Source of the DNA: an uncultured Candidatus Saccharibacteria bacterium
GTDB taxonomy: Bacteria; Patescibacteriota; WWE3; UBA101185; UBA10185
Direction of reading: 5' to 3'
DNA: 64,000 bases
NCBI GenBank assembly: GCA_964387275.1
Contig: CAYLVW010000003.1
Span: forward strand, 45,796 to 109,795
This document shows positions 4,545-53,022 of the stretch, piece after piece. The notes beneath the pieces were generated by a model. It saw nothing but the letters and a program-made list of their open reading frames with translations. It had not been told where the DNA came from and made no database searches. The position numbers and the translations under genes are program-made. The first letter of the stretch is position 1; each line of letters opens with the position of its first letter.

Positions 4545-4706
4545 TGCATAAAACAGTAGTGAAAGCTCGGAAAACTGAAATATACCGGCTCACTTCCTTT
4601 CTATAGCAGAATAACCACCATATTTTTTTCATTTTAGGTCTAAGGTCTCCAATTTTAAAAATGGTTAAGGTTGACAAATACCAGGGTAAAAAGTATAGTC
4701 GTTACC

Positions 4707-4853
4707 ATGCAGGTACCTAAACGAAGACATAGTCGCGGTAGAACGCGAAGAAAAAGAAACAGCCATTATGTTAAATCCGTAACAAACGCGATTAAAACTG
4801 CAGATGGTAAAGCATATAAAAGACCTCATTTTGATGAGAAAGTAGAACTTTAA
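4707..4853 (+). CDS. rpmF: 50S ribosomal protein bL32
   Basis: 'MQVPKRRHSRGRTRRKRNSH...TADGKAYKRPH' matches the bL32 N-terminal signature (MAVPKRR...) and the E. coli-type Cys-less variant. Confidence 0.8.
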   Translation: MQVPKRRHSRGRTRRKRNSHYVKSVTNAIKTADGKAYKRPHFDEKVEL

Positions 4854-4944: not shown

Positions 4945-5370
4945 ATGAAAAGCAAAAAAGATCCAAGACATGAAGCGCGAAAGTTAGCCTTGTCAGGTAT
5001 ATTTTGCTGGTTGTTTTCAGACTCAGATAATTTACTTACTGTAGCACTTTCAAAAGAACTAATGGAGTCAGACAATGTTGATGTAGATCTAGCAAACAAT
5101 ATTATTGCAGGGGTTAAAGAAAACAACGAAAAAATAGATGAAATTATATCCAAATGTGCTCCAGAATGGCCTATAGATAAAATATCAAAGATTGATTTAG
5201 TAATACTAAGAGTGGGTACATATGAGGTTTTATTTTCAAAAACTCCTTCAAAAGTTGCAATTGATGAAGCTGTGGAACTTGCCAAAGAATTCGGAAATGA
5301 CAGCTCAGGCAAGTTTGTAAATGGGGTGTTAGGCGCAGTGGTAGAAGCAAAAGATTCACTTATTGCATAA
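4945..5370 (+). CDS. nusB: Transcription antitermination factor NusB
   Basis: '[13 protein letters not shown]' NusB N-terminal signature. 141 aa, all-helical. Confidence 0.8.
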
Positions 5371-5609
5371 TGTCCCAAGTTAAATAGAATATTACTGAAG
5401 AAAAAAATAGGTACTTGTGGTATAAGATACTTTGAGTTAAATTCGGGTAATAGTAAATCTATTAAGGCTCATAGGTTGCGCTTGTCCCTTCTTTTGTGAC
5501 TTAATCATTTTAGAAGCTATGAAGAAAGCGTATAAACAAGCACTTGCACAGCTTAGACTTACGCCGTAAAGTAAATTTACTTATCTTGCCCTTAAATAAG
5601 GAAATAATT

Positions 5610-5846
5610 ATGACAGCTAACTATTTAAAAAAAATTAAAGAGATACTTCTCGAAAAATTCGGTGTAGAACCAGAAGAAGTAGAGTCAGATTCATACTTTA
5701 CTGATGATCTAAATCTTGGTGAATTAGAAATTGATGAGCTTTTGGTGGAGTTGGAAGAGATATATCACACAAGCCTAATGGAAGAAAAGGAAGAAATTAA
5801 ATCAATTGAAGATTTGATAGATATACTAGTCGAAAAACTTGAGTAG
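5610..5846 (+). CDS. Acyl carrier protein-like protein lacking the phosphopantetheine-attachment Ser
   Basis: Aligns with AcpP: 'IKEILLEKFGVEPEEV...FTDDLNLGELEIDELLVELEE' vs E. coli 'VKKIIGEQLGVKQEEV...[22 protein letters not shown]'. DSL is replaced by GEL. RBS 'aaggaa' upstream of ATG 5610. Lies upstream of rnc as in Bacillus. Confidence 0.7.
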   Translation: MTANYLKKIKEILLEKFGVEPEEVESDSYFTDDLNLGELEIDELLVELEEIYHTSLMEEKEEIKSIEDLIDILVEKLE

Positions 5847-5861
5847 CATCTACGCAGCGAA

Positions 5862-6557
5862 ATGCAAATAGATTTTGAAAAACTCGAAAAAATAATAGAC
5901 ACTCCCATAAACGATAGAAATCTGTATATTACAGCTTTTACTCATAGATCCTACCTAAATGAGCACCCATCATATGATAACCCATCTAATGAGAGGCTCG
6001 AGTTTTTAGGAGATGCTGTGTTGCAATTGATTTCATCCGAATTCTTGTTTAAAAAGTATGGAGATCTCCCAGAAGGGGATCTTACCAATTTAAGAGCATC
6101 TATTGTATGCACCCCCTCAATATCGGAAGAAGCAAAAAGGCTTGGTTATGGAGATTTCCTACTCCTTTCTAATGGAGAAGAAGCAACCGGAGGTAGAAAT
6201 AGAGAATATATACTGGCAAATACATTTGAAGCTGTTCTAGGAGCACTATTTCTAGATAAAGGCATAGATGCATGTAGGGTCCTTATAGAAAGGGAGTTAC
6301 TTTATAAAACTGAGGAGATAAAGGCTAAAAATCTCTACAAAGATGCCAAATCTAAATTTCAAGAACTAGCTCAAGACAAATTCGGAGTCACTCCAAGATA
6401 TGAAGTACTGGATTCATGGGGTCTTGATCATGAAAAAACCTTCAAAGTAGGGGTTTTTATTGATAAAACCTCATACGGAGTTGGGGAAGGAAAAAGTAAA
6501 CAGCGCGCAGAACAGCAAGCAGCAACAAATGCATTAGACAAAATTCAATCGCTTTGA
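5862..6557 (+). CDS. rnc: Ribonuclease III
   Basis: 'ERLEFLGDAVL' RNase III signature plus a C-terminal dsRBD. Confidence 0.9.
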   Translation: MQIDFEKLEKIIDTPINDRNLYITAFTHRSYLNEHPSYDNPSNERLEFLGDAVLQLISSEFLFKKYGDLPEGDLTNLRASIVCTPSISEEAKRLGYGDFLLLSNGEEATGGRNREYILANTFEAVLGALFLDKGIDACRVLIERELLYKTEEIKAKNLYKDAKSKFQELAQDKFGVTPRYEVLDSWGLDHEKTFKVGVFIDKTSYGVGEGKSKQRAEQQAATNALDKIQSL

Positions 6558-6571
6558 TAGAATCTCTCGGT

Positions 6572-6841
6572 ATGTCAATAACAATAAGATTAGCAAAAGA
6601 AGGAAAAAGAAACGCACCATCATACAAAGTTGTGGTTGCCCAAACCAGATCTAAAAGAAATGGCAAACCATTAGATGTACTTGGATATTTCAATCCTTCG
6701 AAAAATCCTAAAGAATTCACAATTTCAGAAGAAAAGTATACTGAATGGACCAAAAAAGGTGCATTAGTTACACCAGCTATTAAAAACCTAATAGCAGGTA
6801 CTTACGAATTTGTAAAATATTCACCAAAAAAGGATAAATAA
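6572..6841 (+). CDS. rpsP: 30S ribosomal protein bS16
   Basis: 'MSITIRLAKEGKRNAPSYKVVVAQTRSKRNGKPLDVLGYFNP' matches the bS16 N-terminus. Confidence 0.9.
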   Translation: MSITIRLAKEGKRNAPSYKVVVAQTRSKRNGKPLDVLGYFNPSKNPKEFTISEEKYTEWTKKGALVTPAIKNLIAGTYEFVKYSPKKDK

Positions 6842-6843
6842 CA

Positions 6844-7110
6844 ATGAAGGAATTTGCAGAATTTCTTATAAAACAGTTAGTAAATAATACTGGTGCAGTT
6901 TTTATAGATGAAGTCGCTGATGGTGAATATACACGAATTGTAATAAATGTAGCACAAGAAGATATGCCAATAATAATTGGCAAAGGCGGAAAAAATATTA
7001 AATCTGTAAGAAATCTCATTAGAGCAAAAGCAATTAAAGAAGGTGTTAGAGTAAGTGTAGAACTTGCGGAAGATCTCACACCTCAGCAGCAAGAAAACCC
7101 AACACGTTAG
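6844..7110 (+). CDS. KH-domain RNA-binding protein (YlqC/UPF0109 family)
   Basis: 'IIGKGGKNIKSVRNLI' GXXG KH motif. Conserved position between rpsP and trmD. Confidence 0.8.
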   Translation: MKEFAEFLIKQLVNNTGAVFIDEVADGEYTRIVINVAQEDMPIIIGKGGKNIKSVRNLIRAKAIKEGVRVSVELAEDLTPQQQENPTR

Positions 7111-7226: not shown

Positions 7227-7898
7227 ATGAAAAAATATAACTTGATATCAGCACAGACTAGAATTTTTGAGTCTCCACTAAAAGAAAGGCCCTTTAAGGT
7301 AGCTATTGAGAAAAAAGCTGCTGAAATAAACTTAGTCAATCTCAGAGACTATGCAATAGATTCCTACGGAACCATCGACGGAAAACCTTTTGGAGGAGGG
7401 GTAGGAATGATTTTAAGACCAGAGCCTATATACAGTGCACTGCTAGACTTATACGGCTCTGATGAGAAGATATTGGATACTAAGGTGTCTTCAACAAAGA
7501 AGATAGTTGTTCTGGATCCGGCAGGCCCAAAGTGGAATCAAAATAAAGCTAAGGAATATTCAAAACTCGAAGAAATCACCTTTATATGTGGTAGATACGA
7601 AGGTATAGATCAAAGGGTGGTGGATTTATTTGCAAGTGAAACTGTAAGTTTAGGAGAGTTTGTCGCGTCGGGTGGGGAACTACCAGCTCTAGTAATATTA
7701 GAAACTATACTAAGGCTTGATGAAAACGTACTGGAAAAACCTGAAGCAACAGAACTTGAAAGCTACAGTAACGACAGCACAACAGAACATCCGCAATATA
7801 CAAGACCAGAGGAATTTAAAAATCTCTTAGTACCTAAAGTTCTTCTAAGTGGAGATCATAAAAAAATCAAAGAGTGGAAAAAATCAAATAGTAAGTGA
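7227..7898 (+). CDS. trmD: tRNA (guanine37-N1)-methyltransferase TrmD
   Basis: 'DGKPFGGGVGMIL', 'CGRYEGIDQRV' and 'SLGEFVASGGELPALV' TrmD motifs. Confidence 0.9.
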   Translation: MKKYNLISAQTRIFESPLKERPFKVAIEKKAAEINLVNLRDYAIDSYGTIDGKPFGGGVGMILRPEPIYSALLDLYGSDEKILDTKVSSTKKIVVLDPAGPKWNQNKAKEYSKLEEITFICGRYEGIDQRVVDLFASETVSLGEFVASGGELPALVILETILRLDENVLEKPEATELESYSNDSTTEHPQYTRPEEFKNLLVPKVLLSGDHKKIKEWKKSNSK

Positions 7899-15233: not shown

Positions 15234-16157
15234 CTAGGGAAGAGCATTACCACCGTTGTATATACCAAAGCTGTACATACTAGGTAAAAACGGGTATGAC
15301 CTAAAGACACTCACTGTCTTGGTAGCAGACACATTTGAGCTCCCACTAAGCTCACCAATGGATTCGATCAAATAGCCTTGTTGGGGTATGGTAGAACCGC
15401 CCCTACCCTCAATCCTAATGTCAGCATCAGCACCTAAAACCAAAATTCTTAATCCATACATGTTATTCCCGGATATCCTAGTGCTTACATTACTTACTCC
15501 ATTAACAAAAGTCCCAGTACTTATACTCCCATTGAGGGTACCACTAGAGTTATCAACTAATGAAGCAGAACAACCAGAATTTGGGCAATACAATTGTTTC
15601 CAAGCCAAAGTAGAAGTCATAGTACCTGTATAACCAAGTATAAATACTGAGGGTTGCAAAGAACCCGATGTAGCTCTCCAATATACATCTACCCCTGTAC
15701 CTGCATACGTACTGAGATTTAGTTCATAGGTTTCATCTTTTTTTACACTAGTTTCAAAAGATGTACCACTTGGGTAGTTAGTTACTGATACGTATGCGGT
15801 AGAACTAACAGTATCTGGAGAAATTGGAGCAAATGTTACAGTGCATCTATCTTGAGCAGAGTCATACCCAGCTCCGGCATTTGTACAACTTGTGACATTA
15901 GCGTCTGTTGCAACTGAAGCCAACTGAGAGGTAGATAAATTTAGGAATCTCTCAGCCCCACCTTCAGCAGCTGCAGAAACTCTATATGAGGTATCAGTTT
16001 GGGTAATCCTGGAGATAGAGGAGAGATTTCTAACAGAAATGCTTGTTACTACAGCTAACGCCACAGTAAGACTGACTATTACAAGTAACAAGGCCTGCCC
16101 AGAGTCATTTTTGGCAGACTTAATGTATTTACTTATATGTAGGCACAAAATTTTCAT
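15234..16157 (-). CDS. PilX-like protein, cassette A
   Basis: 'NDSGQALLLVIVSLTVALAVVTSISVRNL' PilX_N-like N-terminus. About 60% identical to ORF 19628-20542. Confidence 0.6.
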   Translation of the reverse strand: MKILCLHISKYIKSAKNDSGQALLLVIVSLTVALAVVTSISVRNLSSISRITQTDTSYRVSAAAEGGAERFLNLSTSQLASVATDANVTSCTNAGAGYDSAQDRCTVTFAPISPDTVSSTAYVSVTNYPSGTSFETSVKKDETYELNLSTYAGTGVDVYWRATSGSLQPSVFILGYTGTMTSTLAWKQLYCPNSGCSASLVDNSSGTLNGSISTGTFVNGVSNVSTRISGNNMYGLRILVLGADADIRIEGRGGSTIPQQGYLIESIGELSGSSNVSATKTVSVFRSYPFLPSMYSFGIYNGGNALP

Positions 16158-16160
16158 AAA

Positions 16161-18902
16161 CTAATTCCCAACCCATGATACATTATTAACAAAAAGTCCG
16201 TTTGTGTTAGGAGAAGATGCATTTCTTTCTCTATTTGTAAGACCATACAGATATTGACCATTAAACCTTACATAAGTTGCAGGGTAGACATTTGCTGTTT
16301 GTCTATTTCTTGCGAAATCAACAGTAGACTTACTATACAAAAATCCATTTATGTATAAAGATAAGTCATCCACAGGATTTTGAGTTGTTATTGTTATAGT
16401 TCTATCATTCAAGGCTATAAAACCTACCCCCAAATTTGGGGTTCCTGAAGGTGATGGTGTTAGGTCCCCAAGGGTTGGATCTATTGTCAAGTTCTGAACA
16501 GCAACAAATACTATTCTTTCATTTATTGCTGCCGATCTTATAGGTCTCGCAATCCTTAATGTAGAAGCACCAGAGGTATCCCCAATGTAAACTACACCAA
16601 CATAGTCAGAACTGGATAGGTCATATGTTGCAACACCAGAATCATCAGCCCAATCATTAAAATCTGAGGTATTCATCCAGTAACATCTTGATGGATCCAG
16701 CTGAGAGTTTAATTGAGTTTTTGTAATCTGATTAGATAAACACGAAGATGGAACAGTGCTTTGATAATCTGATGGCCACAAAGTTGAAGAAACAGAATTT
16801 GAAATGTTCAAGTAACCCCCGTTATTTTGGTTTAAACTATTAGAGCTAACTGTATCATTTGATATAACAAAGCCGGATCCGGATATACTGTCTGTATCAG
16901 CTAATAGATATGAAGCAAAACCACCAGCAGGTGAGCCAGGTATAGTAATAGTTAAACCATTATTAGTGTATACATCCCCATCAAAGACTGAAATCCATGA
17001 AGGGAGGTTGTTTTGGGCAAAACCTAGTCGCCAAGTATTAAGATTACCATTAACAGTAACCCCAGATCCTAAAGATATGCTATTTGCACCACCAGATACT
17101 GAATACTCATTACCATTACCATCTATACTGTCAGTATCTACACAAGTAAGTCTATAAGTATTACTTCCAGATGGGCTCATTGTGGAAGTCATAGTTGTAA
17201 TTGATGTTCCTTGAGGAACTTGAGGTACAGACCAGTTACTTCCGCTGGAAGTTCCGGTATAAGCATTTGCTGAAACCGCCGATATATTACCAAGAGCAGG
17301 CCCCCCGGTTCTTGGAGTACAAGCTGTTGTTGTCAAAAATGATGAACCAGAAACAGTATATTTAGGAGGTCCTACATTTATTGTAATAACATCGTTTGCT
17401 GTCGAGTAGTTACTAGCGGCGTTCCTGTCACACCTGTAATGAAATGCCATAGTTCTGTTGTACCAAGAACCCCCATTGTATTCACTATTACAAGGCTTGA
17501 TACTGTCAATGGTACTAACGTAAATCTCATACGTACCAGAAGGCAATCCTGTAGTGTTGTAAGTGAATACATTTGAACAGGTAGTTGAACCCGCAGGACA
17601 AGCAACAGTTCCAATATCCACTGGAAAAACAGGATTACTTCTATACAGTCTTAAAAACTGCACATAGTTACCAGTGTAAGCATCATCAATATTTAAATCA
17701 CTGCCGTTTACTGTAAGGGTCAAAATGTCACCAGACGATATTGAAACGTTTCTGGAGACTTGAGCAACACCATTTACGAGAAACCCGTTGTCTATAGAAC
17801 CTCTCGTTACTGAATTCAAATAAATGTTAACCTTATCTGCTAAACCTGCGAATCTGTCACATTTAGCAAAAGGGGAGTCAAACGGACTCAAACTCCCAAT
17901 TGCTACATTACCAGAGCATTGATAACCTCTTATATCATATCCATTTACTACAGCTTCCCACTTTGCAGCAGTAAGAAGATCGGCCATAGTAGGTGTCCAA
18001 GAAACTGTTGTCATAGAACAAAGTCCAGATCCATAAACACAGTTGTAAGCTGAAGGATTCCAAGCAACCCACCCCCCTCCACCGGGCGTGCAATTTGCAG
18101 TAGTTGCGTTACAAGGCCTTCTTGCTACTAACATACTAGACATCCCATTCTGTGGATTTCCAGTGTTGGTATCTTGAGCTATGGCAGTCATAGTTTGAGG
18201 AAAGTCTGCAATATTTATCTGATCATTAATATTTACAAAGGCATCTCTAAGTTCTAATCCTGTGGTATCCCAGGTAAAATCTAGTCTGGCAGTAGGTGGA
18301 GTGGCTTTATGAAATGACCCAATCACACTTCCACAATAAACACCACCCGCATATGCAGAAGCTCCCAAATAAGCGTCTGCTACAATTCTATTATCAGCCT
18401 GGTTCGTTGGATGAAGTTCAAGTTGATCTGTAACTCTCCATACACCACCACCCATATTCGTAGCAGAAAGTATTCTTTCATCATCTTTATTATTTAAAGG
18501 TGACCAGATGTGGAACCAAACACTGCCTGTATTAGCGACTCCGTTTGCCTGCATTGTATATGCCCCAGAGTCCTGATTGAAATTAAGAGTAGGTGCAGTA
18601 ACACCAGTACAGGTAGGTGCAACAGCTCCAAGATCTACAGTGTATTTTCCAGGTGTATTGTAAGGACAGGAGTTATCGCAAATACCCCCACTAGCAACAA
18701 CTTCACACCTGTTTGAAGGAACGCCACCAGAGGTACAGGCAACGTTATTACAAGAGTTACATCTGTAGTTTCTTCCTGCATTTGTCCAAGTATCTCCGGG
18801 ATTGTGCCCTTGACAACTATCACAAGCATTAACGAATTTTGGAATAAAAACCGTAGAGGTCAAAATCACTATTGTATATATAAGTGCCTTACTTGTTCTC
18901 AT
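16161..18902 (-). CDS. Giant secreted Cys-rich protein, cassette A (candidate pilus-tip adhesin)
   Basis: 913 aa. Signal peptide then 'CDSCQGHNPGDTWTNAGRNYRCNSCNNVAC'. Paralog of 20524-23301 with conserved N-terminus (~250 aa) and C-terminus and a divergent core. Confidence 0.6.
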   Translation of the reverse strand: MRTSKALIYTIVILTSTVFIPKFVNACDSCQGHNPGDTWTNAGRNYRCNSCNNVACTSGGVPSNRCEVVASGGICDNSCPYNTPGKYTVDLGAVAPTCTGVTAPTLNFNQDSGAYTMQANGVANTGSVWFHIWSPLNNKDDERILSATNMGGGVWRVTDQLELHPTNQADNRIVADAYLGASAYAGGVYCGSVIGSFHKATPPTARLDFTWDTTGLELRDAFVNINDQINIADFPQTMTAIAQDTNTGNPQNGMSSMLVARRPCNATTANCTPGGGGWVAWNPSAYNCVYGSGLCSMTTVSWTPTMADLLTAAKWEAVVNGYDIRGYQCSGNVAIGSLSPFDSPFAKCDRFAGLADKVNIYLNSVTRGSIDNGFLVNGVAQVSRNVSISSGDILTLTVNGSDLNIDDAYTGNYVQFLRLYRSNPVFPVDIGTVACPAGSTTCSNVFTYNTTGLPSGTYEIYVSTIDSIKPCNSEYNGGSWYNRTMAFHYRCDRNAASNYSTANDVITINVGPPKYTVSGSSFLTTTACTPRTGGPALGNISAVSANAYTGTSSGSNWSVPQVPQGTSITTMTSTMSPSGSNTYRLTCVDTDSIDGNGNEYSVSGGANSISLGSGVTVNGNLNTWRLGFAQNNLPSWISVFDGDVYTNNGLTITIPGSPAGGFASYLLADTDSISGSGFVISNDTVSSNSLNQNNGGYLNISNSVSSTLWPSDYQSTVPSSCLSNQITKTQLNSQLDPSRCYWMNTSDFNDWADDSGVATYDLSSSDYVGVVYIGDTSGASTLRIARPIRSAAINERIVFVAVQNLTIDPTLGDLTPSPSGTPNLGVGFIALNDRTITITTQNPVDDLSLYINGFLYSKSTVDFARNRQTANVYPATYVRFNGQYLYGLTNRERNASSPNTNGLFVNNVSWVGN

Positions 18903-19494
18903 ATATCACGCTAACGAATTTGGTAGTAATTCCCGTCGACCTTGAAGTAACACTGTATTCGACAAACTTGACCATCCTACCAACTAAAACGCCTGCTGAA
19001 TCTTTATATATATTAGTGTATAAAACACTTTCAGGACTATCCCAATTATCAACCTGTACTAGTAATAAGTTTTGTTGTACAGGATTAGTTGAGGAGAGTG
19101 TAGTAATATAGTCATCAAAAGAATAGGGAATTAAACTGTAAATATTTCCATCGCTACTGGAAATCGTGAGTCTGTCATTTTCATAGGATTTAACGTTACC
19201 TTCTATAGAAGTTGATGTCTGCAAAGACTCTTTTAAGAGAGAGATATCATCAACAAAATTAAAATTTGAACTCTGTGTAGTCTCAATAGATTTATTCATC
19301 TCCAAAATTAGTTGAGACCCATCCGGAATATCCTTACTCACAGATCTAGGAACAAAATTTAAGTAAGTTATGTCAATAATTCGGAAGTAAACTAAACCTA
19401 AAAGCAGGGCCATCATAAGAAACACAAAAAGAATTATTATTCTAAACCCAATAAAACCTTTTAAATTAGGATCAATAGGAGCTGGCATTATCAT
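18889..19494 (-). CDS. Small single-TM protein, cassette A (degenerate pilin-like N-terminus)
   Basis: 'NLKGFIGFRIIILFVFLMMALLLGLVYF'. Paralog of 23276-23884. Confidence 0.5.
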   Translation of the reverse strand: MIMPAPIDPNLKGFIGFRIIILFVFLMMALLLGLVYFRIIDITYLNFVPRSVSKDIPDGSQLILEMNKSIETTQSSNFNFVDDISLLKESLQTSTSIEGNVKSYENDRLTISSSDGNIYSLIPYSFDDYITTLSSTNPVQQNLLLVQVDNWDSPESVLYTNIYKDSAGVLVGRMVKFVEYSVTSRSTGITTKFVSVIYENK

Positions 19495-19627
19495 CTATAA
19501 TACTCGTATAAAAAGGAACGCGTAAAGAGTTTATTTTGCAACAATAAAGATTTTGACAGCAACCTTAAGAGAAAGTGAAAGCTTTACCCACTGGAAAAAG
19601 TTACTAATTCTTACCTTAAGGCAGGGG

Positions 19628-20542
19628 TTATTGGATCTGAGCCCCGTTGTTAAAAACTGCGAAATCAAACATTGCGGGCAAGAAGTTGTACGATCTAAAC
19701 ACAGTTACTATTTTCGTAGCTGAAACATTGCTACTACTACTTAACTCACCTGTAGATTCAATCATGTAACCTTGGTAGGGAAGAGTGGCGCCTGCCGCAA
19801 ACCTAACATCTGCGTCAGCTCCAACGACCCTAACTCTTAAACCAACTACGTTATTTAACCCATTTATCGTTACGGCACTTTCAGTACCACTATTTGTGGC
19901 AGTAACACTACCTCCCACTGTACTAAACACACCACAACCTGTATATGGACAGTATAGGGATTTTAAAAGAGGGGAATTACCACTATTACCATAACCAAGC
20001 ACATAAATTGCAGGCTGTGTAGAACCTCCATCTGTTGCTCTCCAATACATCTGAATATTACCTCCTGAGTACCCATTGAGGTTCAATTCGTAAACTTCAT
20101 CTTTTTTTACCTTAACAGTAAAGTCGTTGCCGTTTGGGTAATTTGCTACTTTCACATATGCGGTAGCATCAATATTATCGCTACCTGTACCTGTAAAAGA
20201 CAGGGTACATGCGTTTCTACCAGACCCTACAAACCCTGCGTCACTTCCAGCTTGCTGGCATTTAGCCAAATCTGGGTTAGAAGTCAGAGCCCCAAGTTGG
20301 GTATCGTTAAGCCCCAAGTATCTCTCAGCCCCTCCCTCAGCAACAGCTGTAACTCTATAAGAAGTGTCAGTCTGACTTATTCTAGATATCGAAGATAGAT
20401 TTCTGAGCGAAATACTTGTAACAATAGCAAGAGCTACAGTAAGACTCACAATAACAAACAGTAAAGCCTGGCCAGACTGATTAGTTAAAATATAAGTTTT
20501 GTTAACAAATTTTCTATACATAATTAATTTCCATAATACCAA
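19628..20542 (-). CDS. PilX-like protein, cassette B
   Basis: 'NQSGQALLFVIVSLTVALAIVTSISLRNL'. Paralog of 15234-16157. Confidence 0.6.
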   Translation of the reverse strand: MVLWKLIMYRKFVNKTYILTNQSGQALLFVIVSLTVALAIVTSISLRNLSSISRISQTDTSYRVTAVAEGGAERYLGLNDTQLGALTSNPDLAKCQQAGSDAGFVGSGRNACTLSFTGTGSDNIDATAYVKVANYPNGNDFTVKVKKDEVYELNLNGYSGGNIQMYWRATDGGSTQPAIYVLGYGNSGNSPLLKSLYCPYTGCGVFSTVGGSVTATNSGTESAVTINGLNNVVGLRVRVVGADADVRFAAGATLPYQGYMIESTGELSSSSNVSATKIVTVFRSYNFLPAMFDFAVFNNGAQIQ

Positions 20543-23301
20543 CTAATATTATTTACAAATACTCCGGTGTTATTTGAATTTGAGGAAGCTCTTTCAGCTG
20601 CAGTCATAGTTGATAAATATTGGGTGGAGTACTGCACAACAGTAGAGGGTATAGTATTTGTATTTATTCTGTTCCTTTTAAAGTGAACTCTGCTGTTAGA
20701 TACCAAAAACCCCGAGACATTAAGTGTAGTATCAGGAGTTGGACTACCCTGAGTTTCAACTATCACTTGATTACTACCAACAGCCATAAACCCACCCTGC
20801 ATATTCTGGGTAACACCGTCCCCACCAACCACAGGTGCAAAGATAGCATCACGTAAAAACACAAACACCACACGCTCGTTTGCACTAGAAGAAAGAATGT
20901 TTTTTGTGATATTTAGGCTTGAGGAATCACCAACATAAATAGTAACCACAGAATTAGCGTTATTGATATTGTAGGTAACAGTTCCAGACGAACCACCTGC
21001 CCAAGAATTAAATATTGCAGATGGAGCAAAATAACATCTATTTGAATCCAAATTACTAAAAGTAGAAACATTGGATATTGTGTTAGCAGAACAGGCAGAA
21101 GGCACTGAAGTTGTATAGGAGGCTGGCCATAAATTCATGGCTGCAGAATCAGATGCGTCATAAAAACCACCCGTTGATTCATATAAAGTAGAACCGGACG
21201 GAGACACGGAAGCATTAGAATGGAAATACCCACTGCCACCCACACTATCTTTGTCTGCAAGTACAAATCTTTCAAAGGATGGATTAACAATATTTGGAAG
21301 GGCCATGTTCATGCCACCATTTGAAAAAACGTCCCCTTCATAAACAGTAATCCAAGAAGTTGGTGGGGAAGCAATAAATCCAAGTCTCCATGTGCTAACA
21401 CTTGCGTTAATCGTTTGGGAAGGGGATAAAGTAATGCAGTTTCCTGCTGAGATTGTATGCTCATTACCATTGCCTGAAATACCATCTAAGTCGACACAAC
21501 TTAAGGCATAGTTATTACCTGCATTAGGGGATAATGTAGCACATACTTGATTTGCATTGGTACCACTCGTAATATTAGGAACCGACCAATTTGTCCCAGC
21601 TATACTACCTGTAAAAGTTCCATTAACTGAAACGTTTCCTGAGTTGCCATTTGTTGCACCACTGGTATCAGCTACACAAGCAGTGGTTGTTACAAATGTT
21701 GTTCCAGAAACTGTTCTGGAAGGAGGATTTAGGGTCACAGTCACAACATCGTTAGCAGTCGCAAAATTACTTCCGGCATTTCTATCGCATCTCTGATAGG
21801 ATAAAAGACTACTTGCTGCCCAACTCCTTCCTTGACCATCGCCATTACACACTCCCACATTATCACTTACTTTAACAAGTACCTGATATGTACCAGGTAC
21901 CGAGGTTGCTGTATTCCATGTAGCGTTATTTAAAGTACAAGAAGGAGACCCTGCAGCACAACTAGCTGTACCAAAATCAACAAAACCTGTAGCTAGGGAA
22001 TATCTGGTAGCTGTTACAAAGGCAGCATAGTTTGGTGCATATGTGTCGTCAAGGTTTGAATCAGTTCCATTGGCATTCAATTGAATTACATCCCCCACTT
22101 GAGCTGTAATTGTTCTTGTAGATTGAGCAACACCATTTACCCGAACTGCGTTTGTATCAATCCAGCCTCTAGGTAACACATTTAGGTAAATATTGTATCT
22201 GTCATAAGAGGTGCCATTTCTATCACATCTGGTCCAAGGTTCCTGAAACGGACTGGTCCAAGCAGTGTAGGCGTTACCTGAGCACTGGTAACCACTTCTA
22301 TCGTACACATTTACAACTGCCTGCCATCTCGATCCGGAAATTAAGTCTCCCATAATTGGAGACCACTGATTAGTTGAGACGCTACAACTTGCACTATTAG
22401 CAGGGCAAGCTGGTACACCCCATCCAACCCAGCCCCCGGTGTAATCTGAACAATTGCCGTTAGTAGAATTACAGGCCCTTCTAAAAGCCCATACGTTTGC
22501 TAATCCGTTGTAAGTAGTACCTGGGTGAGGATCAATACCGCTTACTGTTAATTGAATCGGTGCTTCAGCAGAATTTATGTCATCTCTTATGGTAATAAAA
22601 GTGTCTCTTATATCACCACCTGTGGGATCTGCGGGATTATAAATCATACCAGTAGGTGGAGTAGCTTTATGCAAATTACCTATAACACTACCGCAGTACG
22701 ATCCCCCAGCATATGCTGAGGCATTCATATAAGCGTCTACAAAAATCCTTGTATCTGGTTGGTGTGTTGAATGCAGTTCAAGTTGATCAGTAACTCTCCA
22801 AACCCCACCCCCAACATCAGTGGCAGGAAGTATTCTTTCGTCATCTTTATTATTTAATGGTGACCAGATATGAAACCAAACACTGGATGCGTTAGACACA
22901 CCATTTGCTTGGACAGTAAAGTTTCCTGCATCCTGGTTAAAATTTACCTGAGGCGCTGTGACACTAGTACAAGAAGGTCCGGCAGCGCCAAGATCTACAG
23001 TATACTTTCCCGAGGTACCATAGGGACAAGACTCATCACAAATAGCCCCATAGAAAGGATGTGAAGCAACACTACAATGAGAACCGGAGCCATATGTAGA
23101 GGAGTACCAACAAGAAACAGCGTTACAAGAGTCACATCTATAGGATCTTCCTGCGTTTGTCCATGTATCGCCAGGATTCCTACCTTGGCAAGTATCACAA
23201 GCAAATGAAACTCTCGGTACAACCACATTTACTAAAACAAGTGCAACTACTATAAAAAGATAACTAAAGTGCTGCCTATTCATTGAAAAATACTCCAACA
23301 A
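20524..23301 (-). CDS. Giant secreted Cys-rich protein, cassette B (candidate pilus-tip adhesin)
   Basis: 925 aa. 'CDTCQGRNPGDTWTNAGRSYRCDSCNAVSC'. Conserved blocks 'VWFHIWSPLNNKDDERIL' and 'GGGVWRVTDQLELH' shared with cassette A. Confidence 0.6.
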   Translation of the reverse strand: MLEYFSMNRQHFSYLFIVVALVLVNVVVPRVSFACDTCQGRNPGDTWTNAGRSYRCDSCNAVSCWYSSTYGSGSHCSVASHPFYGAICDESCPYGTSGKYTVDLGAAGPSCTSVTAPQVNFNQDAGNFTVQANGVSNASSVWFHIWSPLNNKDDERILPATDVGGGVWRVTDQLELHSTHQPDTRIFVDAYMNASAYAGGSYCGSVIGNLHKATPPTGMIYNPADPTGGDIRDTFITIRDDINSAEAPIQLTVSGIDPHPGTTYNGLANVWAFRRACNSTNGNCSDYTGGWVGWGVPACPANSASCSVSTNQWSPIMGDLISGSRWQAVVNVYDRSGYQCSGNAYTAWTSPFQEPWTRCDRNGTSYDRYNIYLNVLPRGWIDTNAVRVNGVAQSTRTITAQVGDVIQLNANGTDSNLDDTYAPNYAAFVTATRYSLATGFVDFGTASCAAGSPSCTLNNATWNTATSVPGTYQVLVKVSDNVGVCNGDGQGRSWAASSLLSYQRCDRNAGSNFATANDVVTVTLNPPSRTVSGTTFVTTTACVADTSGATNGNSGNVSVNGTFTGSIAGTNWSVPNITSGTNANQVCATLSPNAGNNYALSCVDLDGISGNGNEHTISAGNCITLSPSQTINASVSTWRLGFIASPPTSWITVYEGDVFSNGGMNMALPNIVNPSFERFVLADKDSVGGSGYFHSNASVSPSGSTLYESTGGFYDASDSAAMNLWPASYTTSVPSACSANTISNVSTFSNLDSNRCYFAPSAIFNSWAGGSSGTVTYNINNANSVVTIYVGDSSSLNITKNILSSSANERVVFVFLRDAIFAPVVGGDGVTQNMQGGFMAVGSNQVIVETQGSPTPDTTLNVSGFLVSNSRVHFKRNRINTNTIPSTVVQYSTQYLSTMTAAERASSNSNNTGVFVNNISWYYGN

Positions 23302-23884
23302 ATTTAACTACTTTCTTGAGTTGATAAGATTGATCGTCATAATATTTTATTGAAACTTGCTTATTTAGAGCTGTTGCTATATCAGACGCAAATACTTTCG
23401 TTAAAACAGGAACTTCGGAATTAGTATTGGCAGACAAAACAAGAACTCTATTGGAAGAAGTGCTAGTTTCAAATGAAACTCTAAGCAGGTAATCAGAAAA
23501 ACTATATGTTCTAAGGGTATATAAGTCACCACTCTCAAGTTTTATATCCATAGTGCCGCTAGTAGAATCTACACCAGTGATTATACCGGTAACCAAAGTT
23601 CCTGCGTCAAGAAGGGAATAAATATCTGTAAGATCATCCTTACGTAAAGAAGGAGAGGTAGAGTTACCGGATTCAAAAGAATTTATAAACTCTCTATCAG
23701 CACCCTCCCCATCAAAAACACCATCTTTAGAATCAGAACCAAAATTATACCCATTAATCTGCACCGGAATAAGACCAAAGTATATAGAACCACCCAAAAG
23801 AGCAACAAAAATGAAAACAAATAATATCACTATCCTAAAACCAATGAAACCTTTAACATTTTCGGCAGAATTTACGTGTTTCAT
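23276..23884 (-). CDS. Small single-TM protein, cassette B
   Basis: 'NVKGFIGFRIVILFVFIFVALLGGSIYF'. Paralog of 18889-19494. Confidence 0.5.
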   Translation of the reverse strand: MKHVNSAENVKGFIGFRIVILFVFIFVALLGGSIYFGLIPVQINGYNFGSDSKDGVFDGEGADREFINSFESGNSTSPSLRKDDLTDIYSLLDAGTLVTGIITGVDSTSGTMDIKLESGDLYTLRTYSFSDYLLRVSFETSTSSNRVLVLSANTNSEVPVLTKVFASDIATALNKQVSIKYYDDQSYQLKKVVKFVGVFFNE

Positions 23885-41524: not shown

Positions 41525-42508
41525 TCACTCATCATCATTAAAATCCTCACTATCTATTTCTTTATGAAATTTCTCATGTATGTCCTTTAACTGTTTGTTA
41601 GTGACATGGGTATAAATTTGGGTTGTTGATACATTTGAGTGACCTAATAACTCCTGGACAGAGCGCAAATCAGCCCCATTTCGCAGTAAATCCGTTGCAA
41701 AAGAGTGCCTCAGTGTATGCGGAGTTGCATCAACACTTATACCCGCTCTTAATGTATATTTCTTAACAAGTCTTTGAACACTTCTGACAGTAAGCCTCAG
41801 GGATTCACCCTCAAAATCTTCAGGCTCCATATGCTTACCACTATATCTAAGAAATAGAGGATCAAAACTGTCTATTCTGGTACCTAAATATCTTTTTAAC
41901 CAGCTCCTAGCACTTTCTCCTAAAAACACCATTCTTGCCTTACGACCTTTACCAATTACTGTAAACTCACCAGTATTTAAATTAATATCGCCTTTATTTA
42001 GCTTTACCAACTCACTTACTCGAAGACCAGTTGTAAAAAGTGTCTCTAAGATCGCCCTATCTCTTAAACCAGATTTTTTGTTTAAATCTTGCACTTCAAA
42101 TAATCTCTTCAGTTGATCATTGTCCAGTACTTTAGGGACCCTGTCTTCCATTTTCCCAAGAATAATCTGATCCGGGGAAATTACCTCAATTTTTTCTTCT
42201 ACCAGCAAATATTTTAAAAAAGCTCTTGCAGCAACCAAAAAAGTTTTTTGAGTAGTTCTTTTAAACTCGGTGTTAAATTTTTTGCTTTTGCGCCTGTTTA
42301 AATCCAATCTGTATTTCCTGATTAATTCTTCGCTTAAATCCTTGGCAGTTAACTTGTCCTTACTAAGCTGAGCAGAGCACCAGTCTAACATGTCAGTAAG
42401 ATAAAAGTGGTACATTTTTATGGTATTTTGAGACAAGTTTTTTTCAATCTCACAATGCTCTAAATATCTAATTAAAAGGTCGTGAAGGGTTTTTCCAGAT
42501 TGTGGCAT
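41525..42508 (-). CDS. Tyrosine site-specific recombinase (XerC/XerD family)
   Basis: C-terminal 'HTLRHSFATDLLRNGADLRSVQELLGHSNVSTTQIYTHV' (R..H..R..Y catalytic signature). Start set at the MPQSGKTLHD ATG. Confidence 0.85.
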   Translation of the reverse strand: MPQSGKTLHDLLIRYLEHCEIEKNLSQNTIKMYHFYLTDMLDWCSAQLSKDKLTAKDLSEELIRKYRLDLNRRKSKKFNTEFKRTTQKTFLVAARAFLKYLLVEEKIEVISPDQIILGKMEDRVPKVLDNDQLKRLFEVQDLNKKSGLRDRAILETLFTTGLRVSELVKLNKGDINLNTGEFTVIGKGRKARMVFLGESARSWLKRYLGTRIDSFDPLFLRYSGKHMEPEDFEGESLRLTVRSVQRLVKKYTLRAGISVDATPHTLRHSFATDLLRNGADLRSVQELLGHSNVSTTQIYTHVTNKQLKDIHEKFHKEIDSEDFNDDE

Positions 42509-42530
42509 AACATATATGTTAACAGATATT

Positions 42531-42560
42531 TGTATGGAGTTTAACGACATTAATTTATAA
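42531..42560. repeat. Direct repeat copy A (overlaps the xer 5' end and upstream)
   Basis: 'tgtatggagtttaacgacattaatttataa' against copy B 'tgtatgtttaacgacattgaattacat'. Confidence 0.6.
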
Positions 42561-47615: not shown

Positions 47616-50186
47616 CTAATGATTGGCGGTTCCCGCAAATCTGGAAGAATCAGAGCCTCCTGAAACACTTCTAGACCCATCTGAAGGCTTTCTATCCTTA
47701 GCTTCCTGAGCAAGAGCTAATCCCTTATCAAAATTAGTTTCAACCCACTTATTTATTTTTTCTTCGACATAAATTCTATCAGTACCATACTTCTCCCTAC
47801 TTCTTGCAATTACCTTCTCCTTATTAGGGGTATTATTTATTATGTTGGAGCCAGATTCCCAAGGCAAAAGTATTCGTGCAGAAAAAGGCAAAGACGTCAT
47901 ACCATCTATCATAAGCTTGATATAAATGTTAAATCTCTCAAGCGATATAATATCACTTTGATCAAAATATGGCGCAAACTCGTTAGCTAATACCTTAGCA
48001 TCTGGAGCACCCAAAGAAAATGTTGCTATGGTACCGACATTACCAAAAACTGCTTTTAGTAAGTTCTCTGGCAACTGGTCTGTAAATTGGTGTGTCAAAT
48101 ACAAACCAAGTCCGTATTTTCGGGACTCTGATAATATTTCTTCAAAACTACCTGTTGCAAAATTTTGAAATTCATCAACATATAAGTAAAAGGGCCTTCT
48201 CTCTTTATAGGGTATCTTGGCTCTTTGTAAAGCCATAAACTGAATTCTAGAAACTAGTAAAGCTCCCAAAAGATTAGAGTTATCTGTACCTATCTTACCT
48301 TTGGATAAATTCATCAAAACAATCTTGCCGTTATTCATAGCTTCCCATAGATTTATTGTAGATTTTCGCTGTCCTAGAATATTTCTAATAGTTGTGGAAG
48401 CTAAAAACCTATTTACCTTGTTTTGGATAGGAGCTATGGCTTCTGTCGCAAATTTCTGATTTCCCTTTAGGTTTTTAAACTCGGTCTCCCAAAACCTAAG
48501 CACTACTGGATCCTTAACATAGTGGAGTATATACTTCCTGTAGTTATCATCCTCAAGCAATCTAGTTATGCCAAGTAGTGTGGTTCCAGGAACCTCCAGT
48601 AACGTCAAAATTGCGTAGTTAAGTAAATATTCCAATCTAGGACCCCAAGAAAAATCAAAATGGTGTTTAATAGCAGATACAAGGGCAGAAGCCATAATAT
48701 TTTTCTGAGAAGGGTCTTCCATTTCAAGCAGATTTAACCCTATGGGACGTTCTGTATCTGATGGGTCAAAGTAAATTACATCCTCGATTCTATTATCTGG
48801 AATGTGTTCTAAAACCTTATCTATAGTCTCACCATGAGGATCCAACACCCCAACGCCCGCACCATTTTGAATGTCCTGTGTGATCATGGTTTCGAGCAAT
48901 GTAGACTTACCTGTACCAGATTTACCAATTAGGTACATGTGCCTCAATCTATCATCGGTATTAGCCATCCCAAATCTAACCTTTGAACTTCTATACATAG
49001 TTTCTCCCATATAATTACAATCTGTAATTGGCAATGTTGACGGAGGTTCTGCTTTTTTTGAGTGTATCCAGGAAATATTTGGTGTTTCGACCTTATTAGA
49101 TGGCATATGATAGAGAGTTGCAAGCTCTTCAACATTCATAACAACAGCTCTCTCATCCTCGTACTGCCTCTTTATATAAGCATCTAGAGCATAATTTCTA
49201 TCATGTGATATTGTAGAAACAAACGCATTAGAAGATGTACTGGTAAACTGCTTTAAAGAAGCTACAACAGATCTGAGATTAGAAACTACCCTATCTTGGG
49301 TATTAGAAGAGGACATAACTCTAATAACAACCTTATAACCCATCTTGGCTAACTTATTCTCAATCCCACTTAACTCATTTTCCTGAACTGGAGTAAGTTT
49401 TGGAGGCCCAGCCGGCTTTACTGAAGCCACAGGCTTACCAAACCTATCAACCTCGGCGTTGTATCTAAAAGGCGATATAGCTATATTGGAAGCTAAATCC
49501 AGCATTTCCTTACCAATAGATCCCGCAAATTCAGCAAAAGGGTTGCTACCAGAGCTTTTCTTTAGATCTACCCCTTCCCTTATAGCGTTTGTATATTTGT
49601 AACCGTCATTTTGCCAAGTATCAGGAGTGGGTCTAACTAATACCTGCATCCACAAACTCTCTTCACCAAGCACTTCAGAAAAAGAAGAAGTTAACCCAGA
49701 TAATGGATCAGTCTCAAAATCTCTGAAAGTTTTTATTGGGAAAAAATCTGGTTTTGAAAAACTAAGGTAGCTTACCTCAAAAAAAGAATCACGGGGCGTA
49801 TATTTCTCAGTATAATCTGAAACAGGTATTAATTGAGCTGTGGGGTATTGAGCATAAAGCTGACTTTCTACAAATTTAATGGCGGATGGAGGGGCTGTAA
49901 AATAAAACTTCAAGCCTTCTCTACCAGTAGATACAATCTCAAAAGAAATGTTCTCCTGAACTATGGAGTCCTCCCTAAGAAGACCGTGTAAGGATGCGAA
50001 CATATTTTCTGCAGAAAGTGGGGAGGTTTCTAGTTGATTTTCATCAATTTTAGGTACGCGGATTTCAAAAACTTCAAAGGCACCGGAATTAGAAGCTGAG
50101 GTATCGATTTTAGAACCAAATCGTTTAAACGCTATAAAACCCCCGGTCAAGGCTATAAGACTAAAAACTATAAAATATATTGCCAT
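47616..50186 (-). CDS. Membrane-anchored P-loop ATPase of the HerA/FtsK/TraD (DUF87-like) superfamily with a large N-terminal domain of unknown function
   Basis: N-terminal TM. About 400 aa with no motif. 'RHMYLIGKSGTGKST' Walker A, 'VLDPHGE' and 'FYLYVDEFQNF' Walker B. 856 aa. Confidence 0.6.
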   Translation of the reverse strand: MAIYFIVFSLIALTGGFIAFKRFGSKIDTSASNSGAFEVFEIRVPKIDENQLETSPLSAENMFASLHGLLREDSIVQENISFEIVSTGREGLKFYFTAPPSAIKFVESQLYAQYPTAQLIPVSDYTEKYTPRDSFFEVSYLSFSKPDFFPIKTFRDFETDPLSGLTSSFSEVLGEESLWMQVLVRPTPDTWQNDGYKYTNAIREGVDLKKSSGSNPFAEFAGSIGKEMLDLASNIAISPFRYNAEVDRFGKPVASVKPAGPPKLTPVQENELSGIENKLAKMGYKVVIRVMSSSNTQDRVVSNLRSVVASLKQFTSTSSNAFVSTISHDRNYALDAYIKRQYEDERAVVMNVEELATLYHMPSNKVETPNISWIHSKKAEPPSTLPITDCNYMGETMYRSSKVRFGMANTDDRLRHMYLIGKSGTGKSTLLETMITQDIQNGAGVGVLDPHGETIDKVLEHIPDNRIEDVIYFDPSDTERPIGLNLLEMEDPSQKNIMASALVSAIKHHFDFSWGPRLEYLLNYAILTLLEVPGTTLLGITRLLEDDNYRKYILHYVKDPVVLRFWETEFKNLKGNQKFATEAIAPIQNKVNRFLASTTIRNILGQRKSTINLWEAMNNGKIVLMNLSKGKIGTDNSNLLGALLVSRIQFMALQRAKIPYKERRPFYLYVDEFQNFATGSFEEILSESRKYGLGLYLTHQFTDQLPENLLKAVFGNVGTIATFSLGAPDAKVLANEFAPYFDQSDIISLERFNIYIKLMIDGMTSLPFSARILLPWESGSNIINNTPNKEKVIARSREKYGTDRIYVEEKINKWVETNFDKGLALAQEAKDRKPSDGSRSVSGGSDSSRFAGTANH

Positions 50187-52325: not shown

Positions 52326-52709
52326 TTACTTAAAGTACGCTTTAACCTCATCAATTATCTTGTCAGGGGTTATTTCAGATTTTATTAAATAGCCATCGGC
52401 ACCAAGAGAAAATCCCTCGCTAATAATACTCTCACTATCTAGATTGGTTAGCAAGATGACAGGCTTAGCTTTTAGTTTATCATTTGACTTAATATGCTTG
52501 AGAATCTTCATACCGTCCTCACCAGGAAGCATTATATCTAAAAGTGCTAGATCCCATTCATCTGAAAATGCTCTTTTTAAACCAATGTCTCCGTCTTTTG
52601 CCTCTAAGACTTTGTAACCATTATCTCTTAAAACTTCAGCGTAGACCATTCTTATGTCAGAATCGTCTTCAACCAATAATATTATTTTTTCGTTATTTTG
52701 TGGTTCCAT
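52326..52709 (-). CDS. Stand-alone response-regulator receiver (CheY-like)
   Basis: 'ILLVEDDSDIR...LALLDIMLPGEDGMKIL...KPVILLT' with Asp and Lys in canonical positions. Confidence 0.75.
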   Translation of the reverse strand: MEPQNNEKIILLVEDDSDIRMVYAEVLRDNGYKVLEAKDGDIGLKRAFSDEWDLALLDIMLPGEDGMKILKHIKSNDKLKAKPVILLTNLDSESIISEGFSLGADGYLIKSEITPDKIIDEVKAYFK

Positions 52710-53022
52710 GTGAATAATAATACACCACTACACAAATAATTAACAAGCCTATAAGAACTAACACATCAGCCACATTGAAAGCAAACATATTAAAAAAGTT
52801 TAGGTTGTCTAAAACGCACTCACCATTTAGCCTAAAATAAGAGTTATAAGAACTACCGCCCAAAAAAAGAATAATACCCAGTAGGTAGAGTTTATTGGTC
52901 AAAAGCTTTTGAAACTGGTAAATAAAAAAAATAAAAGCTAAACCACAGACAAAAAGCAGATATTTAAATTCCAAATACCCAGACAAAAGATAAAAACAGT
53001 TATATGTCCCATCAATAAACAT
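52693..53022 (-). CDS. lspA: Lipoprotein signal peptidase (LspA)-like, N-terminally short
   Basis: 'GGSSYNSYFRLNGECVLDNLNFF...FNVADVLVLIG' resembles LspA 'GGALGNLIDRL...VVDF...FNIAD'. Only 109 aa. Confidence 0.55.
   Translation of the reverse strand: MFIDGTYNCFYLLSGYLEFKYLLFVCGLAFIFFIYQFQKLLTNKLYLLGIILFLGGSSYNSYFRLNGECVLDNLNFFNMFAFNVADVLVLIGLLIICVVVYYYSHGTTK

Follow-up and report, generated by a model that had tools for sequence, protein, structure and literature searches.

What would keep an acyl carrier protein (ACP) homologue in a bacterial genome once the serine that carries its prosthetic group is gone? This question is raised by a gene at positions 5610..5846 (+) of a 64,000-nucleotide stretch of contig CAYLVW010000003.1 (assembly GCA_964387275.1, uncultured Candidatus Saccharibacteria bacterium, one of the ultra-small Patescibacteria), hereafter referred to as the window, in which it stands immediately upstream of rnc, the gene of RNase III. 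The open reading frame (ORF) has an ATG start and a TAG stop, and its product is a protein of 78 aa, MTANYLKKIKEILLEKFGVEPEEVESDSYFTDDLNLGELEIDELLVELEEIYHTSLMEEKEEIKSIEDLIDILVEKLE. According to the analysis below, the attachment serine is absent from the whole family of related proteins, and it is reasonably probable that the product has an ACP fold which always stays apo, no longer serves as a carrier and has been kept as a small, acidic subunit that binds or stabilises another protein. The features of the gene that are used in the text are as follows.

5610..5846 (+): coding sequence of the serine-less ACP-fold protein, 78 aa, stop included; from the ORF list, ACP homology and ACP fold
5598..5602 (+): Shine-Dalgarno-like AAGGA, 7 nt 5' of the ATG; read from the sequence, with an identical block in the relative L004
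5706..5729 (+): motif D33-L-N-L-G-E38-L-E40, which replaces the canonical ACP motif; from ungapped HMMER alignments to PDB ACPs
5718-5720 (+): codon GGT of Gly37, the column just before the Ser column
5721-5723 (+): codon GAA of Glu38, the Ser column; from ungapped alignments to PDB ACPs
5721..5765 (+): helix II, the acidic "recognition helix", residues 38-52; from DSSP on the AlphaFold model

An ACP Fold without the Attachment Serine

The similarity of the protein to ACPs is far too strong to be due to chance. It is matched by NCBIfam ACP models with E-values from 7.6e-12 to 1e-8, and a phmmer search of the PDB matched 106 ACP chains (best E-value 5.6e-9). All of the printed alignments with PDB ACPs are ungapped across the motif DDLNLGELEIDELL, so that G37-E38-L39 sit in the columns of the canonical D-S-L. 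The scores fall below the curated thresholds, with 14.7 bits for the Pfam PP-binding model (gathering score 20.8), 40.1 bits for TIGR00517 (cut-off 70.45) and values likewise under the cut-off for the other NCBIfam ACP models.

3D modeling in the AlphaFold2 program, with an alignment of 71 family sequences as input, gave a model with a mean pLDDT of 86.7 and four helices (residues 2-17, 38-52, 57-62 and 66-77). In this model, helix II begins with Glu38, at the site of the modified serine in ACPs. A Foldseek comparison of the model with the PDB returned ACPs only among the top 50 matches; the best was the Staphylococcus aureus ACP 4dxe (TM-score 0.90, rmsd 1.2 Å), and ACPs bound in the MukBEF and Nfs1-ISD11 complexes were also present (ranks 32, 44 and 50). 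The composition of the protein is very acidic, with 25 Asp and Glu residues of 78 and 7 basic ones, a pI of about 4.1 and a net charge of about -18.

The initial annotation, made from the letters of the window, had described an ACP homologue with the attachment Ser replaced by Glu, and both the ungapped PDB alignments and the AlphaFold/Foldseek fold bear this out. The acidic residues of helix II that it reported as retained are present as well (E40, E43, E49 and E50). As for the nearest serines, S28 lies 10 residues upstream of Glu38, in agreement with the earlier statement that nearby serines are found only 10 or more residues upstream, and S55 lies 17 residues downstream. No alternative alignment can place a serine at the attachment site in this protein or in any of the 145 family members described below, and the claim that the protein would not be converted to holo-ACP is supported accordingly at the level of sequence. 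The identical protein is encoded on two contigs, L002 and L003, which come from different sequencing runs and were assembled independently, so G37 and E38 are not an assembly error.

Serine Loss as a Family Trait

Relatives of the protein were collected in two ways: HMMER, run exhaustively against 1.84 billion representatives, gave 27 clusters at E ≤ 1e-10, and a profile search of a set of 5.8 billion proteins gave 185 matches at E ≤ 1e-6. Residues in each column were counted over 145 aligned family members. The source names of the family are candidate division WWE3 (Katanobacteria), Curtissbacteria (Microgenomates) and "Patescibacteria group", and its lineage is judged from the named relatives only, that is, from WWE3 and Curtissbacteria. 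Members are usually labelled "acyl carrier protein", "phosphopantetheine-binding protein" or "hypothetical protein". They keep a length of 76-83 aa and the same N-terminus in different lineages, even where identity is only about 30%, and the motif D-L-N-hydrophobic-x-[ED]-[LMI]-[ED] persists over the same range.

None of the 145 members has Ser at the attachment column. The column contains Glu in 82, Asp in 55, Ala, Gln and Asn in two each, and Lys and Pro in one each, so that Glu or Asp occupies the former Ser position in 94% of the family; in the comparison set of canonical ACPs, Ser is found there in 102 of 102. The initial annotation had considered a single gene. The loss of the serine is a trait of the whole clade, in which Glu/Asp is nearly fixed.

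Further variants were found in more divergent proteins of sister lineages with nusB-ACP-rnc synteny, where the serine position is taken by Pro (DLGADPIE; L073, 2648-2887), Asp (DFGASDLE; L075, 2557-2808) or Asn (DLNLSNLE; L074, 3528-3773). The residue that took the place of the serine thus differs from lineage to lineage. In the protein P0031 (DLGASSVE), whose identity to the Pro forms is 67%, the canonical column still has Ser. Together with the sister forms, it suggests that the serine was lost repeatedly or recently.

The viral collections contained no relatives of the family, and no description of a Ser-less ACP in the Candidate Phyla Radiation (CPR) or Patescibacteria was found in the literature. 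Another Ser-less ACP-like protein (P0049, 84 aa, EDFKMDEIDF) is encoded at 6001-6255 of L072, a 214-kb contig (NCBI JAWVGW010000023.1). It is surrounded by about 30 small same-strand ORFs without Pfam matches, and the contig also codes for RtcB, an RNA ligase and a dCMP deaminase. With this content, it resembles a large phage or mobile element more than the CPR operon; no relatives of P0049 were found in the viral contig collection.

Operon Position beside rnc

The gene belongs to the string recG-(rsmD)-rpmF-nusB-ACP-rnc-rpsP-KH-trmD, which is followed by pilO...pilM on the opposite strand. In the window, the neighbouring genes are located as follows.

4671..4853 (+): rpmF, ribosomal protein L32; Pfam Ribosomal_L32p, E-value 8.2e-5, above the cut-off, and conserved synteny
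4945..5370 (+): nusB, the upstream neighbour; Pfam NusB, E-value 1.6e-34, and conserved synteny
5371..5609 (+): spacer of 239 nt between nusB and the ACP-like gene; ends conserved and middle variable in the alignment with L004 and L002
5862..6557 (+): rnc, RNase III; Pfam Ribonucleas_3_3 (E-value 2.5e-37), Ribonuclease_3 and dsrm
6554-6841 (+): rpsP; precomputed Pfam matches on the identical contig L002, and tblastn synteny
6844-7110 (+): khpA-like gene with a KH domain; same sources as for rpsP
7227-7898 (+): trmD; same sources as for rpsP

The string is present in WWE3 (L006/7), in two Curtissbacteria-type lineages (L008-L011 and L076/77) and in every metagenome locus long enough to tell. 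The metagenome loci come from a profile search with 16 sequences and a pattern containing Glu, and its 60 loci were used for synteny and not for the counts at the Ser column. In 56 of 56 distinct loci, rnc directly follows the ACP-like gene. The spacing between the two (ACP stop to rnc start) is 9 nt in the median and 119 nt at most; 36 of the 56 loci have 20 nt or less, and in 6 the genes overlap. In the window, rnc begins at 5862, 15 nt past the stop codon of the ACP-like gene and in the same frame. In Bacillus subtilis, acpA-rnc(-smc-ftsY) forms one operon, and its 1.1-kb acpA-rnc mRNA is autoregulated by RNase III (PMC4838370). The Bacillus-type position directly upstream of rnc, noted earlier for this gene, is thus confirmed both in the window and across the loci.

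The CPR arrangement is best read as the ancestral rpmF...acp-rnc...rpsP-KH-trmD region without the lipid genes (and without smc-ftsY-ffh). In Escherichia coli, rpmF precedes plsX-fabHDG-acpP, and in B. subtilis, plsX-fabD-fabG precede acpA.

The constancy of this position raises the possibility that the protein is a dedicated partner of RNase III, either a regulator or an acidic mimic of nucleic acid on the basic dsRNA-binding surface, produced in a fixed ratio to the enzyme by translational coupling. The invariant adjacency, with a short median distance and overlapping reading frames in several lineages, and the strong negative charge of the protein are in line with this explanation. However, the adjacency is ancestral and occurs in Bacillus with a normal ACP, and the rest of the neighbourhood is equally conserved. 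Because the adjacency predates the serine loss and conservation extends to the whole string, the adjacency by itself is a sign of co-expression rather than of a specific functional link to RNase III. Nor did fusion proteins or another independent link emerge: among the long matches, the search for Rosetta-stone fusions found only repeats of canonical DSL ACPs, artefactual read-throughs and one member with an acidic insertion (P0054). In this strict form, we regard the explanation as unlikely.

Lipid-Synthesis Genes and Classical ACP Partners

Pfam scans of the 64-kb window detected no ACPS (PF01648), ketosynthase, FabD/G/Z/I or PlsX/Y/C domain. Its Pfam content includes type IV pilus components, gyrase, DnaB, RNase HII, IMPDH, RuvC, EF-P, HisRS, a release factor and others. 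In the annotated flanks of the relatives (+/-10 kb), no fab or pls genes were found, nor any ACPS domain. The literature describes CPR bacteria as generally lacking lipid and phospholipid synthesis (PMC7304191) and their phospholipid genes as "generally incomplete" (PMC13293708).

The initial annotation had named SpoT, IscS and MukB as known moonlighting partners of ACP. Retention of the protein for such a partner, that is, for a RelA/SpoT homologue, a cysteine desulfurase (IscS/SufS) or an SMC-type condensin, would agree with the match of the model to the PDB ACPs bound to MukBEF and Nfs1-ISD11, and also with the place of smc after rnc in the B. subtilis operon (PMC4838370). Against this, neither the conserved string nor the 64-kb window encodes any of these genes, the named partners gain no support from the results, and Met44 and Asp35, conserved in canonical ACPs, are lost. 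The known contacts also have their own requirements. Contact with IscS is made through a disulfide to the 4'-phosphopantetheine (4'-PP) thiol of ACP. SpoT binds holo-ACP only, and does so only in bacteria that have two RelA/SpoT paralogues; MukB is not known outside the gamma-proteobacteria. The classical E. coli partners are therefore less likely than RNase III or a ribosome-biogenesis factor, and we consider a role of this kind quite improbable.

Remodelled and Retained Residues

The 145 family members were compared with 102 canonical DSL-containing ACPs in a single alignment, with E. coli numbering. Eight columns depart from the canonical consensus, with a Jensen-Shannon divergence of 0.75-0.97.

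Gly33: canonical G in 102/102; family Asn in 143/145
Ala34: canonical A in 102/102; family I/L/V/M in 144/145
Asp35: canonical D in 102/102; family T/G/S
Thr39: canonical T/Q; family L/I/M
Met44: canonical M in 101/102; family S/A/E/T
Asp56: canonical D in 101/102; family variable
Ala59: canonical A in 101/102; family K/I/L/A
Ala68: canonical A in 88/102; family L/I/V

In the same numbering, Lys8, Gly16, Asp31, Leu32, Glu41, Glu47 and Glu48 are kept in the family. As for the C-terminal part (numbering of the 78-aa protein), Asp68 is found in 135 of 145 members, yet also in 75 of 102 canonical ACPs, and is thus conserved and not new; Glu75 (131/145) and an acidic residue at the C-terminus are commoner than in canonical ACPs. 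In this numbering, D33, L34, N35, E40, E49, D68 and E75 are invariant or nearly so over lineages that are 30-50% identical.

In acyl-ACP structures, Ala34, Thr39, Ala59 and Ala68 line or gate the acyl pocket, and Asp35, Met44 and Asp56 are recurrent contacts with AcpS and the enzymes of fatty acid synthesis (FAS). Given these assignments, we infer from the column comparison that the acyl pocket of the family has probably been filled in and the FAS-enzyme interface dropped, with a generic acidic docking helix kept.

These columns also bear on the question of whether the protein could still be a carrier, with the prosthetic or another group attached to a non-canonical residue, for example to Ser or Thr in the column just before the former serine (column -1). 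This column contains Thr in 59 of 145 members, Gly in 48, Ser in 23, Ala in 8, Asp in 5, Asn in one and Glu in one. A hydroxyl residue is thus present in 82 members, among them the three closest relatives (P0002-P0004, 69-91% identical), which bear Ser, and the canonical-column Ser of P0031 in the sister clade would also fit a carrier. However, the mixture of residues at column -1 means that there is no conserved hydroxyl near the Ser column, and the protein of the window has Gly at -1 and Glu at the Ser column itself. Since the S37G difference separates orthologues that are 91% identical, the Ser at -1 is dispensable. The Gly33 and Asp35 found in all canonical ACPs are gone, and the four pocket positions A34, T39, A59 and A68 are now bulky. 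To our knowledge, phosphopantetheinyl transferases do not modify Thr, and E. coli ACP with the S36T replacement stays apo. A carrier of this type is very unlikely.

Selection on the Gene

In comparison with the 91%-identical orthologue L004, the ACP-like gene shows a dS of 0.48 and a dN of 0.044, and its dN/dS of 0.09 is far below 1; the gene is under purifying selection. In the same comparison, dN/dS was 0.012 for nusB and 0.029 for the rnc fragment. Together with the persistence of length and motif to about 30% identity, the dN/dS value excludes a decaying relic. Preservation of the ORF as a functionless leader cistron that supplies rnc with a promoter, translational coupling and perhaps an autoregulatory target has a parallel in the acpA-rnc mRNA of B. 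subtilis, a unit autoregulated by RNase III (PMC4838370), and in the ACP stops and rnc starts that lie within 20 nt of each other or overlap in most loci, but a leader ORF needs no particular amino acid sequence, and the low dN/dS, the near-invariant positions listed above, the confident prediction of an ACP fold and the acidic residue that has become fixed, without drift, where Ser used to be make it highly improbable.

Proposed Role

The explanation that we prefer, an ACP-fold protein that is permanently apo and serves as a binding or stabilising subunit, builds on the observed homology, fold, absence of the attachment serine, family-wide acidic fixation, purifying selection and invariant operon position. 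According to it, the gene would descend from an acpP/acpA gene once located between rpmF-(plsX-fab) and rnc. The lipid-synthesis genes would have been lost in this Patescibacteria lineage (WWE3/Katanobacteria plus Microgenomatia such as Curtissbacteria), and the small protein would have been kept, with its attachment serine changed to Glu or Asp. With the loss of Gly33, Asp35, Met44 and Asp56 and the change of Ala34, Thr39, Ala59 and Ala68 to bulky residues, the acyl pocket would have become filled. The remainder would be a compact, very acidic four-helix module with an acidic helix-II face (E40, E43, E49 and E50), the surface by which ACPs dock on basic patches of their partners. Docking through helix II, the protein may act as a stoichiometric binding or stabilising subunit of another protein, and it would share a transcript with RNase III and with proteins of the ribosome and RNA maturation.

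The near-fixation of Glu/Asp argues for a selected role of the acidic residue at the Ser column rather than for neutral drift. Such a residue could cap or stabilise the N-terminus of the helix, or could keep the negative charge of the phosphodiester at a partner interface. The non-acyl-carrier role suggested in the initial annotation gains support from the serine loss, the remodelled conserved residues, the low dN/dS and the retained acp-rnc position; a loss of carrier function is the probable reading.

Given co-translation and operon membership, the leading candidate for the partner is RNase III or a ribosome-biogenesis factor, although only a tentative one. A more specific version would have the protein dedicated, in Microgenomatia/WWE3, to RNase III or to a step of ribosome/rRNA maturation as a stoichiometric subunit or regulator, with its acidic residue mimicking the phosphate of the lost arm at the interface with the partner; this version seems unlikely.

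Several points weigh against the proposed role. The argument for a filled pocket uses the pocket residues of E. coli ACP in acyl-ACP crystal structures and columns of an alignment. The evidence on whether acpS, a second canonical ACP or ACP-dependent enzymes are missing reaches no further than the 64-kb window and the flanks of the relatives. Some Patescibacteria keep a canonical DSL ACP: a profile search of genome contigs with a narrow alignment of four sequences returned a single locus, L001, where such a protein (GMDSLD) is encoded at 5304-5537 of the metagenome-assembled genome contig JAQVLT010000023.1, not beside rnc and with bipA/typA upstream. The dN/dS of the ACP-like gene is 3-8 times that of its neighbours, so that the constraint is real but looser. 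In addition, with all nine genes of the string conserved and the acp-rnc adjacency older than the serine loss, RNase III is not singled out.

Comparison with Known ACP Systems

The closest relatives by descent are the type II FAS proteins AcpP/AcpA (PF00550, TIGR00517). The protein shares with them homology over the full length (E-values of about 1e-9 to 1e-12), the four-helix fold (TM-score 0.90), size, acidity, the acidic helix II and the slot upstream of rnc, as for B. subtilis acpA. It differs from them in having Glu38 and no attachment Ser, in scoring below all curated cut-offs, in the loss of Gly33, Asp35, Met44 and Asp56, in the bulky residues at Ala34/Thr39/Ala59/Ala68 and in the absence of fab/pls genes nearby. 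It is an evolutionary descendant of AcpP that departs from the functional family in the serine, the curated scores, the pocket and contact residues and the fab context.

A mitochondrial ACP (mACP) without the 4'-PP group has been described in Plasmodium, where it is essential and binds and stabilises the Isd11-Nfs1 complex of Fe-S cluster synthesis (Falekun et al. 2021, PMC8547962). Both proteins have the ACP fold and a replaced serine, and mACP outlived the loss of type II FAS in its compartment; it is the closest precedent for a non-carrier, stabilising role. Unlike mACP, which is eukaryotic and organellar, the protein studied here is encoded in a bacterial genome, within an operon of RNA-processing and ribosomal genes, and its replacement is acidic (Glu/Asp); the replacement in mACP is hydrophobic (Phe). 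Isd11 is a LYR-motif protein, and we know of no LYR proteins in bacteria. In the conserved neighbourhood, no cysteine desulfurase or LYR-like gene was found.

Accessory ACPs form another group for comparison (MukBEF-AcpP, MmpL5-AcpM, EmbA/B-AcpM, Nfs1-ISD11-ACP and apicoplast ACP-PKII). They are structural or stabilising subunits with the ACP fold and are Foldseek neighbours of the model. In contrast to the protein of the window, which has no attachment site, they are ordinary holo- or acyl-ACPs of a cell that runs FAS. In the apicoplast, ACP is reported to stabilise PKII, and their association uses the 4-PP group (PMC13574338). Among these systems, the protein of the window stands as a bacterial form of ACP without the 4'-PP group that is shared by a whole clade, has an acidic substitution and is linked to the rnc operon.

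ACP is among the most connected bacterial proteins, and its carrier and binding functions are hard to separate. The large CPR clade, which belongs to a group reported to be generally without lipid synthesis, seems to be a natural separation experiment, in which the prosthetic-group site was removed, other residues typical of canonical ACPs were changed and the protein was kept under selection, always beside RNase III and genes of the ribosome and RNA maturation. The identity of the partner would reveal an FAS-independent function of ACP in bacteria and could possibly explain the old linkage of acp/acpS with rnc operons. If the protein is indeed a subunit or regulator of RNase III or of a step in ribosome or rRNA maturation, bacteria would have their own parallel to the scaffolding roles that organellar ACPs play independently of FAS. 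The result also concerns annotation: the labels "acyl carrier protein" and "phosphopantetheine-binding protein" could lead to such genes being miscounted as CPR lipid metabolism.

Gene Boundaries, Spacer and Other Features of the Window

A longer ORF from TTG 5544 (100 aa) was considered and rejected, as the homologues all begin at the position equivalent to the ATG and the Shine-Dalgarno-like sequence precedes 5610. In the spacer at 5371-5609, the first ~76 nt and the last ~70 nt are near-identical to L004, where another sequence, 117 nt longer, takes the place of the middle. The WWE3 relatives (L006) are without the spacer, and in them nusB overlaps the start of the ACP-like gene. The 239-nt spacer gave no sign of a structured RNA or riboswitch, with a fold z-score of 0.12 and nothing above noise in Rfam, and its + strand has no listed promoter of the sigma-70 consensus type. 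It was taken as an ordinary 5' region, probably a promoter plus 5' untranslated region.

The G+C content of the window is 34-40%. On the opposite strand past trmD, a type IV pilus cluster is located. Inside it, at 15234-23884 (-), a three-gene module without Pfam matches is tandemly duplicated, with 53%, 48% and 32% identity between the copies of its three proteins.

15234-16157, 16161-18902 and 18889-19494 (-): module copy 1, proteins of 307, 913 and 201 aa
19628-20542, 20524-23301 and 23276-23884 (-): module copy 2, proteins of 304, 925 and 202 aa

The N-terminus of the ~920-aa proteins of the module is Cys-rich, and these proteins may be pilus-tip or adhesin-like. An 855-aa TrwB/TraG/HerA-like type IV coupling-protein ATPase is encoded at 47616-50186 (-), and a tyrosine recombinase (Phage_integrase) at 41525-42550 (-), about 5 kb from it, with several ORFs without Pfam match in between; this region may be what is left of an integrated conjugative or mobile element. 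The ORF of signal peptidase II at 52693-53022 (-), 108 aa, matches only positions 55-140 of the 142 of the Pfam model, and in its 309-aa neighbour at 53026-53958 (-) only a C-terminal DksA/TraR zinc finger was matched, so that the two may reflect a start-codon or annotation issue or may be truncated genes.

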